Shown here piece by piece: positions 26,115 through 39,083 of a stretch of DNA of 64,000 nucleotides. Within the stretch, counting starts at the first letter, position 1. Each line of letters begins with the position of its first letter. The position numbers and the translations under genes were made by a program. This DNA comes from Escherichia phage AnYang: sequence record MK234886; one strand, 5' to 3'. The notes below the pieces were generated by a model that saw only the letters and a list, made by a program, of their open reading frames with translations, searched no databases and was not told the origin of the DNA.

Positions 26115-26474
26115 TTAAAGATGGTCAAGCGCCGGGTTATGAGGTTTTTCTGCTTTAGTAGTGTTTTTATGCCAATCTGATTTGGAAACACGAATTGCAT
26201 CAGCACCATAAGAACTCTTAAGGATACCTTTTTTATTGTACACGCTTATTGAAGTAAGAGAATCGCCATTCCAAGTAGCATGGACAAAGTTAGATTTAGA
26301 TTTAAGTTCTTTAGCCAAGCTCTGGTTAGATGCCATAGAAGCGAAATCTTTACCCGTAACTTTAAAAACTTCAGATGGGTTCAACCCTTCTTTAGCTTTA
26401 GCCAACTGTTCAGGCGACATAGCTTCATTAAGACGCTGAGTTGATTCTGTAATAAATTCTTGATAAGTTTTCAT
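26115..26474 (-). CDS. internal-protein-like protein with CTS
   Basis: 119 aa; N-terminus MKTYQEFITE. Confidence 0.65.
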   Translation of the reverse strand: MKTYQEFITESTQRLNEAMSPEQLAKAKEGLNPSEVFKVTGKDFASMASNQSLAKELKSKSNFVHATWNGDSLTSISVYNKKGILKSSYGADAIRVSKSDWHKNTTKAEKPHNPALDHL

Positions 26475-28003: not shown

Positions 28004-28402
28004 TTATTTGTAGGTTTTCATCCAATTCTTGAACAAAGCCGCGACGTCTTTCTCTTTAACGTTCAGTTTAACGTCCAACATTTTACCACCCGCTGCTCTC
28101 GTTTGGCGAATCTTAGCAGTACCGGTTTCGCCATTCCACTCAACATAATACTGTCCAGTGTTCATTGCAATACCGTCGCCGTAGTCTTCATTTTTAGAAG
28201 TGGTGAAGGCCAGCTTCATAGTCTTAGAGACGCGGGCCTGCATGCCTGTCTTCAGAGCGTTACGAACGCGAATAACCTGAGGAGTGGCCTGGGTCAGGTT
28301 CTCATTCAGGTCTTCAGTGAACTCTTCAGATTCAAACATCGCCAAAAGTTCTTTAGATGCAGGAATTACATTCTCTGCGATAAATTCATTATAAGTTTTC
28401 AT
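28004..28402 (-). CDS. internal-protein-like protein with CTS
   Basis: 132 aa; N-terminus [10 protein letters not shown]; overlaps start of e by 14 nt. Confidence 0.6.
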
Positions 28403-28883
28403 ATGCTTTCCAAGTACCTGTTTTAAATGTTGAAATCACGCGCTTAGCACGATTAGGAGTTTGTTTATACCAACGGGATTGAGCCAGGTTAACTGCCGCA
28501 TCATCCCAACGTTTCTGTTGGAGCATACGTAAAGAGTTAGTGAACCCAGCTACACCTGCTTCACCCATCTGGAAGACCATGTTAATTAAAGCACAACGAC
28601 GAACTTCGTCCAGTACATCATAAACAGGTTTCAATTTAGGATTACGCAGAATAGCTCTACGAGCATTTTCAACTGATCGGTTAAAGAGTTGTTCAGCTTC
28701 AGCCATAGTAATACGACCGTTGCAAACTCGGCCTATAAGCTTATCTAGTTCAGCGCGAGCAACATCTTTAGATGGGTTCTTGGTAACTAACTGGCCAATA
28801 CCAATAGTCCAATAACCTTCAGTGTCTTTATAAAGATTTAAATCAAGACCTTCGTCTTGACGTAACATATCAAAAATATCCAT
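28389..28883 (-). CDS. e: lysozyme (endolysin) e
   Basis: 164 aa; T4 lysozyme fold with catalytic Glu11/Asp20 context ([21 protein letters not shown]). Confidence 0.95.
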
Positions 28884-28884
28884 A

Positions 28885-28914
28885 ATACCTCCTGAGTATA
28901 GGAGGTATTTATAT
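28885..28914 (-). promoter_or_regulatory. gene e translational-control hairpin with embedded late promoter
   Basis: ATACCTCCT/AGGAGGTAT inverted repeat holding the SD; minus-strand TATAAATA overlaps the 5' arm. Confidence 0.6.
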
Positions 28915-36607: not shown

Positions 36608-36636
36608 ATAGTATCATGTTTAAAGGAGGTGTAAAC
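36608..36636 (-). promoter_or_regulatory. T4-type early promoter
   Basis: GTTTAC -35, TACTAT -10. Confidence 0.5.
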
Positions 36637-36663: not shown

Positions 36664-36690
36664 CCCCCAAAAAGGAGACCGAAGTCTCCT
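36664..36690 (-). terminator. rho-independent terminator (minus strand)
   Basis: AGGAGAC-TTCG-GTCTCCT hairpin followed by TTTTTGGGGG. Confidence 0.6.
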
Positions 36691-36694
36691 TTCA

Positions 36695-37303
36695 TTATTT
36701 ACGAGTCTTTTCGAACTGGGCTGCGTCACCTGCAAGGCGGCCGGCTTGGCGAAGTTTGTTATTGATTTCTTCGCGCATAGGCTGGGTATACTTAAGGCCT
36801 TCAACCGTCAGATAGAGACGATACAGGTCTGGGGTATCCAGGTTGTTAATGTGTTGACCATTACGAAGAGCGTTGAATTCACGAACAAGGTGTTTAGTTT
36901 CAGATTCGATTTCAGAAACTAAAGAAGCCAGTTGGTTATATTTTTTAACTATAGTGCTGGTGTCAAACTTGATTTTAGGTTTAGGAGCTTCTTTTACAGG
37001 TTCTGGTTTAGGCGTCGGTTTCGGTGTTGCAACTTTGGGCTGAGCCGCAGGTTTAGCAACAGGAGCTTTAGTAGGTTTAGTAGCGCCACCAGCTACGATA
37101 TCTTTAAAAGCTTTGGAAGCTTTGTAATATTCTTTCTGGTTACTGGTGTCGAGCCCATACATATCATAGACGTTTTTAAAGAATTCGGTGGTGGTTTTAG
37201 TCCCAGAAATTTTATCATAAGCTGCTTGCCACATATCTTTAGTCATGCGAACGCCGGCTTCACTCAGAATGCTTTCGTTCAAAAATTCATTGTAAGTTTT
37301 CAT
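36695..37303 (-). CDS. internal-protein-like protein with CTS and Pro/Ala/Lys-rich linker
   Basis: 202 aa; N-terminus MKTYNEFLNE; KPTKAPVAKPAAQPKVATPKPTPKPEPVKEAPKPK low-complexity segment. Confidence 0.6.
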   Translation of the reverse strand: MKTYNEFLNESILSEAGVRMTKDMWQAAYDKISGTKTTTEFFKNVYDMYGLDTSNQKEYYKASKAFKDIVAGGATKPTKAPVAKPAAQPKVATPKPTPKPEPVKEAPKPKIKFDTSTIVKKYNQLASLVSEIESETKHLVREFNALRNGQHINNLDTPDLYRLYLTVEGLKYTQPMREEINNKLRQAGRLAGDAAQFEKTRK

Positions 37304-37331
37304 TGGTATTTCCTAAGTTAATTAACTTATC

Positions 37332-37366
37332 TATTTATACAAAAAGCCCAACCTTTCGGAAGGGCT
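37332..37366 (-). promoter_or_regulatory. terminator plus late promoter (TATAAATA) module
   Basis: minus-strand hairpin AGCCC...GGGCT with U-run, then TATAAATA about 28 nt upstream of the CTS gene ATG. Confidence 0.5.
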
Positions 37367-37371
37367 GTAAA

Positions 37372-37926
37372 TCAGTTCTTATAGAATCGGAACGGGTTTA
37401 CGTGGAAGGCTAACATAGCCTTAGGGATTTTACGAGACAAAAGACTCTTAAGTTTCCAACCACAGTACACGCGAAGGTAAAAGGTAATACCTCCAACCTT
37501 AAGATAAGGAACCGAAGCAAAAACTCCCCATGCGTCATCATTCCACATCCATAGCCACCCGTGATGAGCTTTATCAGGGGAACCTGATTCCACATCAGGA
37601 TTACCGCGATAATGGAATTCTGAGCTACAATCACGTCCGAGTTTATGGTAAGCAAAGTTATAAGCTTTATTTCGCCATAGCCAAGCTACTCTCTGGAGAT
37701 AAACGCCAAAAGGTAGTTTTCTGATTTTAGCCCAACGTTTAATGTGACCTTTATCACCGTCAATTGGATTATCGTATGTCATCATCCAATCAAAGCCATA
37801 TGGTAATTTACCGGTCTTTTTATTGTGGAAAGGGACTACAAAAGGTGCAAGGATAACAGCCAGAACCATAGAGATAAAATCTAGAGGGACCAACAGAACC
37901 CAACTCAAATATTTTAAAAGTTTCAT
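37372..37926 (-). CDS. membrane-anchored Trp-rich protein expressed from a late promoter
   Basis: 184 aa, N-terminal TM helix, AGGAAAT SD. Confidence 0.55.
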   Translation of the reverse strand: MKLLKYLSWVLLVPLDFISMVLAVILAPFVVPFHNKKTGKLPYGFDWMMTYDNPIDGDKGHIKRWAKIRKLPFGVYLQRVAWLWRNKAYNFAYHKLGRDCSSEFHYRGNPDVESGSPDKAHHGWLWMWNDDAWGVFASVPYLKVGGITFYLRVYCGWKLKSLLSRKIPKAMLAFHVNPFRFYKN

Positions 37927-37952: not shown

Positions 37953-37989
37953 TATTTATACAAAAAAGGCCCGACCTTTCGGAAGGGCC
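37953..37989 (-). promoter_or_regulatory. terminator plus late promoter (TATAAATA) module, second copy
   Basis: GGCCCTTCCGAAAGGTCGGGCC hairpin with U6, then TATAAATA; near-duplicate of the module at 37332-37366. Confidence 0.5.
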
Positions 37990-38225
37990 TTTAACCTAGG
38001 GTAACCTTGTCGGGGTTCCACCTGCTAGGCAAGTGTTCGGTGCGCCGTTTCAGCTGTGATATAAGGGACTTTAAGAGGAACTCATGTACGCCTTAAAGTC
38101 GGGTCTTATTCAGGGAACTTCAGTCCGACGACTTACCGGTAGCGACCCGGTTTCTTGTTTGTTGCGCCGGTGAATGCTGGTAATCAGTCTTCATACGACG
38201 GCTTGACTATATAATAGTCTTCATT
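37990..38225 (-). ncRNA. candidate small stable RNA(s) distal to tRNA-Arg
   Basis: 236 nt non-coding gap between tRNA-Arg and a terminator; internal hairpin GACTTTAAG/CTTAAAGTC; T4 has stable RNA species 1/2 at this position as I recall. Confidence 0.3.
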
Positions 38226-38300
38226 TGGTATCCCGCCCTGGGATCGAACCAGGACCGCAAACTTAGAAGGATCGTATGCTATCCATTACACCAGCGGGAC
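38226..38300 (-). tRNA. tRNA-Arg (anticodon UCU)
   Basis: hand-folded cloverleaf: acceptor GTCCCGC/GCGGGAT, T-arm CCTGG-TTCGATC-CCAGG, anticodon loop CTTCTAA, encoded CCA. Confidence 0.8.
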
Positions 38301-38305
38301 GTAAT

Positions 38306-38971
38306 TCAAAATTTTATTTTACGGCCTTTATTCCAACCTTCAGGAATAATATCCGTTTTGTTAATACGTTTAGAAACTTTTTCTTCTAAAGAATGAATCC
38401 ACATTTTTCCATATCCGGAATTATTTTCACCTTGTTGGTGTTTATTTCTGGCGTGAGATTCTTTCATTTTATTTTTGGTTTCATCTGAATGGGTCTTACC
38501 CAAGAAAGATTTAGTATTTGAAAATTTCTCTCTATACTTAGGATTATCCCAAAGTTGTTTAAACCTTTCTGAACCCATTTTACGATATTTTTCTTTAAGG
38601 TCTGGGTCGTTCTCAAATCTGGTTTTAAAAGCGGCAACTCCTTTTAAGGAAGCTTCTTTCTTTTTATCTAAATATTCTTCAGTGTTTAAATGGTCCCAAC
38701 CACCTTCACCGCCTAATTTCAAATTATAAACATCGGGGCGCTTTAAAAACTCTTCAGTCACAATATTCTTTTCTGACTCAAACATAGAGATTTTATCGTC
38801 AAAGAACTCTAATATTTCTTTAGAGAAATTTTCTATACCGTATTTGGCCTGGGCCCTTTTCAAGAGTTTACCGGAACCAAAATATGCATCATTCAAATTT
38901 TCGGTTGAATGGGCTCCTATATAGATTTTATTATTAATTTTGTTTGTTATTTTATAAGTGTAATGGAACAT
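38306..38971 (-). CDS. segB: GIY-YIG homing endonuclease (SegB-like)
   Basis: 221 aa; N-terminal YKITNKINNKIYIG GIY-YIG motif; sits between the two tRNA genes. Confidence 0.8.
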   Translation of the reverse strand: MFHYTYKITNKINNKIYIGAHSTENLNDAYFGSGKLLKRAQAKYGIENFSKEILEFFDDKISMFESEKNIVTEEFLKRPDVYNLKLGGEGGWDHLNTEEYLDKKKEASLKGVAAFKTRFENDPDLKEKYRKMGSERFKQLWDNPKYREKFSNTKSFLGKTHSDETKNKMKESHARNKHQQGENNSGYGKMWIHSLEEKVSKRINKTDIIPEGWNKGRKIKF

Positions 38972-39012: not shown

Positions 39013-39083
39013 TGGCCCTGGGTGGAATCGAACCACCATCCAGCGATTATGAGTCGCTCGCTTGACCGTCCAGCTACAGGGCC
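39013..39083 (-). tRNA. tRNA with CAU anticodon (Ile-lysidine type or Met)
   Basis: hand-folded cloverleaf: acceptor GGCCCTG/CAGGGCC, anticodon stem AGCGA/TCGCT, loop CTCATAA, T-arm GGTGG-TTCGATT-CCACC; CCA not encoded. Confidence 0.7.

Follow-up and report, generated by a model that had tools for sequence, protein, structure and literature searches.

To our knowledge, no phage proteins other than internal head proteins enter the host cytoplasm along with the DNA. In phage T4, the first ten residues of the internal protein (IP) IPIII suffice for head targeting and also package foreign proteins. Targeting is mainly governed by residues 4 and 7, processing by residues 8 and 10 (PMC9026906). A role has been demonstrated for two of them, IPI and IPIII, which overcome host defences and determine the host range: IPI counteracts GmrSD, and IPIII, which works in the cytoplasm, is required on ECOR17 (PMC9391042). 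Polymorphic genes bearing such a capsid targeting sequence (CTS) have been described for T-even phages (PMC9026906). T4-type phages also shuffle genes via short conserved cassettes, among them the promoter-early stem-loop (PeSL) cassettes (PMC2839356). Here, we describe a gene in a stretch of 64,000 nucleotides (nt) from Escherichia phage AnYang (sequence record MK234886), in the following called the window. It encodes a tagged protein of 202 amino acids (aa). With a probability of about two in three, this is an internal head protein made late, which enters the head through the scaffold, is processed by the protease gp21 and is ejected with the DNA.

The gene occupies 36695..37303 on the minus strand (-). 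It comprises 202 codons plus a stop codon, starts with ATG and ends with TAA, which is followed by TGA. A preliminary description of the window had reported a protein of this length beginning with MKTYNEFLNE, and this is what the open reading frame (ORF) encodes. The product is 100% identical to the phage AnYang protein, and the gene corresponds to JS98 orf135 and KIT01_139. At the DNA level, the locus shares 97% identity with Escherichia phage KIT01 and 91% with JS98 (genus Dhakavirus); the window is that of a JS98-like Dhakavirus, a T4-like coliphage. The gene is located between e.8 and the tRNA/stable-RNA cluster, within an otherwise early region, and keeps this one genome position across eight genera. 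Homologues are present in 142 phage records from Dhakavirus, Mosigvirus, Kagamiyamavirus, Winklervirus, Kanagawavirus, Tegunavirus, Marfavirus and Karamvirus, and in all 142 the product is called 'hypothetical protein'. A full-length profile match was obtained with phrog_2280 (function unknown; E 5.6e-60, residues 1-197 versus profile positions 1-178 of 178). In the loci that were read, the family is single-copy; fHe-Yen9-01 has an adjoining paralogue with a variant N-terminal domain (N-domain). T4 lacks the gene and carries at the corresponding place only the stable RNAs rnaC and rnaD. It is apparently also missing from phiR1-RT, a phage that reportedly has a published structural proteome. 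When relatives were aligned, in-frame insertions and deletions (indels) proved to be confined to the linker, and conservation extended down to 25-50% identity. This supports coding on the minus strand. An artefactual ORF or an antisense gene was rejected because of the cross-genus conservation with in-frame indels, and an Rfam search for an RNA element in the flanks matched two tRNAs only. We are dealing with a real, conserved gene.

The tag is encoded by codons 1-10 (37274-37303 (-)) and was recognized by its likeness to T4 IPIII and IPII. MKTYNEFLNE is identical to MKTYQEFIAE of these two proteins at positions 1-4, 6, 7 and 10 and ends with a gp21-type L-N-E motif. Both the determinants of targeting, Y4 and F7, and those of processing, L8 and E10, are present. 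In T4, exchanging E10 for D abolishes processing and leaves packaging intact. The tag was compared among 21 relatives, some with no more than 25-40% overall identity. Y or F occupies position 4 in 19/21, and F, I or L position 7 in 21/21; L or I is found at position 8 and E at position 10 in 19/21 each. That the tag has been kept at its functional positions despite this divergence argues for selection on the peptide. The following codons 11-15 (SILSE; 37259-37273 (-)) provide a possible second gp21 site, L13-S14-E15, directly before the conserved N-domain. Most relatives have a second [LIV]xE ending at residues 14-18, which abuts a conserved (A/S)G-x-RMTK block, and in those without the short spacer it is the first cleavage site that abuts this block. 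The propeptide of T4 IPI has 19 residues and ends with ITE. The pattern points to a propeptide length of 10 to about 17 residues, similar to that of the T4 IPs (10-19 residues). Beyond residue 15, the protein contains no [LI]xE site. The JS98 genome annotation includes the gp21 protease, the gp22 scaffold, gp67 and gp68, the genes of which are located outside the window. Thus, at the sequence level, the features of the IP class were found: the CTS with its positions 4 and 7, the (L/I)-x-E motif and a small basic protein, with gp21 and gp22 assigned via JS98.

A T4-type late promoter is located at 37332-37339 (-). It matches TATAAATA exactly, and exactly 28 nt lie between its last A and the ATG, a distance previously estimated at about 28 nt. 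TATAAATA is the gp55-dependent T4 late promoter, whose first base is less constrained. A Shine-Dalgarno sequence, AGGA, could be read from the sequence at 37311-37314 (-), 7 nt before the ATG. Upstream of the promoter, a hairpin with a GAAA loop (AGCCC..CC-GAAA-GG..GGGCU; 37345-37366 (-); RNA fold -12.8 kcal/mol, z -2.7) resembles an intrinsic terminator and is followed by a U5 run (37341-37345). The hairpin sits between the promoter and the stop codon (37372-37374) of the upstream gene, which encodes 184 aa; the promoter had been said to follow a terminator, and this is its placement. The hairpin is predicted to end transcription of the 184-aa gene and to shield the CTS gene from read-through. 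Downstream of the gene, a second terminator hairpin with 10 bp, a UUCG loop and a U-run (36670-36693 (-), -14.8 kcal/mol) follows directly after the double stop TAATGA. Next to it, a sigma-70-like early promoter with TG, TTTACA-16-TACTAT (36608-36635 (-)), would, by its sequence, restart transcription into e.8. This hairpin and the sigma-70-like promoter together constitute a PeSL-type cassette. As terminators are found on both sides, the gene would form a single-gene late unit inside an early region, and it appears to be transcribed late only.

This anatomy is conserved. An ATAAATA core is found 35-43 nt before the start codon in 10/10 orthologous loci from eight genera, within flanks that have diverged, and a hairpin is located just upstream of the core in all 10 loci checked. 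The base before ATAAATA is T in JS98, JS09, fHe-Yen9-01 and PG7, G in EcS1, CBH8, Kosakonia 305 and CIP9, and C in Marfa. JS98 and the Mosigvirus JS09 have the same hairpin and T-run ahead of the promoter. At the 3' side of the gene, a hairpin is present in 9/10 loci read; the exception is fHe-Yen9-01, where the paralogue follows directly. A conserved non-coding sequence, ggtatctgagcaagcggtgcgc, was observed just before the late promoter in EcS1, CBH8, Kosakonia 305 and CIP9 (loci L005, L006, L007 and L011), which are the Kagamiyamavirus, Winklervirus and Kanagawavirus loci read. In the metagenomic relative P0020 (278 aa), the gene call translates ggtatctgagcaagcggtgcgc as an N-terminal extension. 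In P0020, translation very probably begins at the internal Met with which the CTS starts.

The studied gene is not the only tagged gene of this phage. Eight ORFs of the window begin with MK(T/A)Y.EF(I/L).E, far beyond chance expectation. Five of the other seven are located at 25.8-28.4 kb downstream of the lysozyme gene e and include clear ipIII and ipII homologues, and two are found at 40.4-40.9 kb in the ipI/57B locus. In 5/7 cases, the ORF belongs to a PHROG annotated as internal head or virion protein. The isoelectric points (pI) of the other IPs of the window range from 8 to 9.9. The preliminary description had called the studied gene the only CTS gene with a TATAAATA promoter. It is indeed the only one with a proximal TATAAATA. 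However, the CTS gene 28004..28402 (-) shares 14 nt with the 3' end of gene e (28389..28883), and e has its own TATAAATA at 28906-28913. Because of this overlap, the CTS gene must share the late transcript of e. In addition, no terminator-like site was detected by a simple scan between e and the ipIII, ipII and two other CTS genes that come after it. The situation in T4 is similar: two TATAAATA elements precede e, and sigma-70-like promoters are located before ipIII and ipII. What distinguishes the studied gene appears to be that it is seemingly late-only, and not that the other CTS genes lack late transcription. Two of the tagged ORFs, 28004..28402 (-) with 132 aa and 26115..26474 (-) with 119 aa, fall into PHROGs of unknown function (phrog_15461 and phrog_3966, respectively). 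Their products are probably unannotated internal proteins, too.

The mature form of the studied protein, from which the ten residues have been removed, has a calculated mass of 21.6 kDa and a pI of 9.6. Its architecture was modelled with AlphaFold using an 11-sequence alignment, with a mean predicted local distance difference test (pLDDT) value of 70. The N-domain (residues 16-72, 37088-37258 (-)) consists of three helices (22-72 in the model, pLDDT ~80-86) and contains the conserved motifs RMTK..W and QKEYYKASKAFK. It is followed by a spacer (residues 73-112, 36968-37087 (-)) in which 11 P, 10 K and 7 A account for 70% of the 40 residues, with a pI of 10.4 and a net charge of about +8. This is the Pro/Ala/Lys-rich linker noted before; it is disordered in the model, with pLDDT <50 over residues 73-104. 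Among relatives, its length drifts via in-frame indels, and its composition is kept. The C-terminal domain (C-domain), likewise noted before, comprises residues 113-202 (36698-36967 (-)) with the motifs FDTS..KKY and NNLDTPDLY. In the model, it folds into one long helix and two further helices (116-200, pLDDT ~75-86), for which only generic helical-bundle or coiled-coil fold matches were obtained.

Searches for a function in Pfam, NCBIfam and PDB sequences gave only sub-threshold or compositional matches. The COMP coiled coil, proline-rich regions of TonB and PspA, and antibody light chains were rejected as such. Foldseek found only orthologues in BFVD and no match below E = 3 in the PDB. The spacer shares with those of TonB and PspA the alternation of Pro-Lys and Pro-Ala and a predicted extended, disordered state. 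The likeness is, however, only compositional (E ~0.002-0.005, scores far below the cutoffs), and the flanking domains are not homologous. Membership in the TonB family was rejected at 17.9 bits versus an NCBIfam cutoff of 315; the proline-rich spacer alone aligns.

An exhaustive profile search yielded only 14 clusters at 50% identity, all of the same type. Modules are exchanged within the family. CIP9 and P0023 have kept the tag, the N-domain and the spacer, and their C-domain is unrelated. Conversely, P0025 and P0027 share the tag, the spacer and the C-domain and have a different N-domain. The same N-domain is present in gp153 of fHe-Yen9-01, where the C-terminal part is more divergent. Such domain swapping fits arms-race evolution. 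In the Yersinia phage fHe-Yen9-01 (L008, 1501-2616), gp154 and gp153 are tandem paralogues that start with MLQYNEFLKE and MLEYSEFLKE, respectively. Both contain a Pro/Lys/Ala spacer, their N-domains differ, and no separate promoter is located between them. Two Klebsiella phage records, which we take to be Jiaodavirus, match residues 4-69 only, so that Jiaodavirus may carry only a partial N-domain relative. A mass spectrometry paper on Jiaodavirus virions reports, for hypothetical proteins, no more than low counts. In at least one related phage, the gene is apparently split (68-aa P0024; BFVD A0A220NR89 and A0A220NR92, 68 and 158 aa): A 68-aa N-terminal piece has a frameshifted tail, and the 158-aa piece shares 96% identity with the query. 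The split reflects a sequencing error or else a natural frameshift; a real frameshift would mean that the gene is not needed for growth on the isolation host.

How does the protein compare with the T4 IPs? It shares with IPIII, IPII and IPI the MKTYxEF(I/L)xE tag with its (L/I)xE cleavage motif and the basic character, and with 202 aa it is close in size to IPIII (193 aa). The genes are located on the same strand in the same genome arm of mixed early and late genes, and the studied phage also encodes true ipII and ipIII homologues. In contrast to the T4 IPs, the studied protein has two domains joined by a 40-residue Pro/Lys/Ala spacer. Moreover, T4 ipIII and ipII have sigma-70-like promoters and owe their late transcription solely to the promoters of e, whereas the studied gene has a proximal late promoter and flanking terminators. 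Homology to IPIII beyond the tag was rejected, as BLASTP against T4 IPIII aligns residues 1-25 only. Matches to the PHROGs of IP families (phrog_5341, phrog_7857 and relatives) are likewise N-terminal only, with E >0.05. With the polymorphic IP genes of T-even phages (ipI locus; PHROGs 2667, 7673 and 8765, annotated 'internal head protein'), the studied family has in common that one tag precedes unrelated mature sequences and that modules are exchanged. Those proteins, however, are single-domain, comprise 70-130 aa, are encoded in clusters and vary highly among close relatives, whereas the studied family is larger and its position is conserved. Since the IPs are a functional class of unrelated proteins with one tag, the studied protein can be counted as a probable further example of the IP type. 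Judged from its sequence, it most likely works like a T4 IP but is not a homologue of IPI, IPII or IPIII. New compared to the T4 IPs are the genome position, the dedicated late-promoter cassette, the build of two domains plus spacer, and the unusually broad conservation.

The gene, its tag, its promoter and terminator anatomy, their conservation and the domain architecture were directly established. On this basis, we infer a course that leads from late transcription via head loading, cleavage and ejection to a role after ejection. The self-contained late unit of terminator, TATAAATA, ribosome site, gene and terminator would allow synthesis of the protein during prohead assembly. MKTYNEFLNE would then act as CTS and bring the protein into the gp22 scaffolding core. 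There, the prohead protease gp21 would remove the tag after Glu10 and probably five more residues after Glu15. The basic protein of ~21 kDa, with its two helical domains joined by an extended spacer, would stay in the head with the DNA and would most likely be ejected with it into the host, as are T4 IPI and IPIII. It might act at the very start of infection, either in counter-defence or as a DNA-associated factor, and the lysine-rich spacer could provide DNA affinity or reach. By analogy with IPI and IPIII, the protein, once ejected, would most likely serve in first-response counter-defence; instead of this, or in addition, the lysine-rich spacer may have a DNA-associated role. The preliminary description had already proposed a CTS protein made late for head assembly. 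This proposal agrees with the conserved CTS residues, the promoter core, the terminators on both sides, the basic charge and the gp21 and gp22 of JS98; only the singularity among CTS genes was claimed too strongly.

Several observations weigh against this role. The gene is located outside both classical IP loci, e-ipIII-ipII and ipI/57B, and the mature part of the protein has no similarity to IPI, IPII or IPIII. Fold and family searches yielded no functional hint. The promoter element is not rarer than expected by chance in the AT-rich window, where 9 TATAAATA copies were found versus 8.0 expected. This count alone is uninformative, and eight of the nine copies precede, by 21-28 nt, the ATG of an ORF with at least 50 aa; the sites of e and of the divergent genes 4 and 53 are among the eight. 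Depletion of internal [LI]xE motifs was sought as an indirect sign of exposure to gp21. Among 19 relatives, 18 motifs were observed versus 20.3 expected (P = 0.34), which provides no signature of selection against internal gp21 cleavage. Neither a virion proteome nor an N-terminal sequence nor a transcript map of a homologue turned up in literature and locus-tag searches. Finally, the Dhakavirus and Mosigvirus members share ~65% identity; conservation across genera thus exceeds that of a typical arms-race IP, and this could point to an assembly role rather than to an ejected effector.

Such an assembly role would make the protein a prohead core or assembly accessory like gp67, gp68 and gp22. 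It would be targeted by its tag and made late as well, but would largely be degraded or expelled at maturation and not be retained for injection; control of head size or shape, or tethering through the long spacer, might be its task. Tag and late timing are equally expected here, and the conservation across genera is near the level of structural genes. The coiled-coil-like helical bundle of the C-domain, with its weak match to the COMP coiled coil, would also suit such a protein, and T4 IPIII mutants display slowed head assembly and polyheads (PMC9026906). We nevertheless regard this explanation as unlikely. The lack of any [LI]xE beyond residue 15 in this phage means that no degradation is predicted, the absence of the gene from T4, and apparently from phiR1-RT, argues against a core assembly function, and the split gene in one related phage suggests dispensability. 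The main task of the protein might also be carried out within the head if it condensed DNA like histone H1, with the spacer binding DNA and the helical domains bridging or oligomerizing. The spacer is basic enough for this purpose (net ~+8, pI 10.4) and conserves its composition while sequence and length drift, and the T4 IPs are basic, DNA-binding and present in several hundred copies per head (PMC9026906). However, the spacer also resembles the rigid linkers of TonB and PspA, which do not bind DNA, no DNA-binding fold was matched in the fold searches, and the T4 IPs are dispensable for DNA packaging (PMC9026906). Condensation as the main role is very improbable.

It is also conceivable that the protein never enters the head. 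In this case, it would be a late cytoplasmic protein whose likeness to the CTS arose when conserved 5' ends of IP genes recombined and is not a working targeting signal. In this region, the similarity among the CTS genes extends to the DNA, gene shuffling through short conserved cassettes is known for T4-type phages (PMC2839356), and packaging data for homologues were not found. This explanation is nonetheless decidedly unlikely: The tag is conserved at its functional positions in relatives in which the DNA and the rest of the protein have diverged to 25-40% identity, and because ten residues suffice in T4 to package a foreign protein (PMC9026906), a tagged protein made late would be packaged anyway. 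Packaging followed by ejection with the DNA thus remains the preferred explanation. It can be extended to a more daring one, which we consider tentative and rather doubtful. The protein could represent a distinct, modular class of head-delivered proteins, in which a CTS and an adaptor domain are linked by a rigid Pro/Lys/Ala spacer to a helical 'warhead' that can be exchanged. Such genes would have been inserted into early regions as portable stem-loop and late-promoter cassettes. Once ejected, the conserved N-domain would hold the incoming DNA or a conserved host target, and the swappable C-domain would neutralize a first-response defence. If true, this class would be a widely conserved, unrecognized counter-defence effector across at least eight genera of T4-like phages.

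Irrespective of this extension, the family is unannotated in at least 142 sequenced T4-like phages, several of which are phage-therapy candidates. A probable head-delivered protein provides a testable candidate for a new counter-defence or DNA-associated factor. Searches that combine the CTS tag with the conserved late-promoter cassette could reveal such proteins outside the classical IP loci. Since CTS tags are known to occur on diverse cargo, the result extends known biology and does not introduce a new principle.

The late-promoter cassette of the studied gene has a near-duplicate before the adjacent 184-aa gene (37953-37989 (-)), composed of a hairpin (37968-37989), T6 and TATAAATA (37953-37960). 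The cassette 'GGCCCTTCCGAAAGGTCGGGCC, T-run, G, TATAAATA, ~25 nt, aacttaggaaata, ATG' thus occurs twice, almost identical, before adjacent genes (37953-37989 and 37332-37366). In the Mosigvirus JS09, the sequence found before the first cassette in the window is immediately followed by the CTS gene. According to this arrangement, the 184-aa gene looks inserted or deleted by recombination between the stem-loop and late-promoter cassettes. As in PeSL cassettes, conserved stem-loops and promoters bracket the studied gene, and a near-identical copy is found before the neighbouring gene. In contrast to PeSL, the upstream cassettes carry the late TATAAATA instead of a sigma-70-type early promoter, and only the downstream cassette is a classical PeSL. 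The duplicated cassette looks like the late-promoter counterpart of PeSL. The 184-aa ORF itself (37372..37926 (-)) has a hydrophobic N-terminus, belongs to phrog_2143 (function unknown) and corresponds to JS98 orf136, which is noted in the JS98 record as similar to RB43 ORF080w. Its product is a probable membrane protein. With its own TATAAATA 26 nt before the ATG, it is, as predicted from this element, a second late-only gene in the early region.

Between the tRNA-Arg gene (38229-38300) and the first late cassette, a non-coding stretch at ~38020-38160 (-) is homologous to the 5' part of T4 rnaD and the 3' end of rnaC, which are the species 2 and 1 stable RNAs, respectively. About 150 nt between the two parts are missing compared to T4 and JS09, and no Rfam family matched the stretch. 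This suggests that the stable RNA of this phage is a fused or shortened one. Finally, a 221-aa ORF starting with MFHYTYKITNKINNKIYIGAHS (38306..38971 (-)) is located between the tRNA genes 39013-39083 and 38229-38300. It is situated inside the tRNA cluster, as is segB in T4, and is absent there from JS98 and KIT01. From its N-terminal motif, judged by eye, it looks like a GIY-YIG homing endonuclease.

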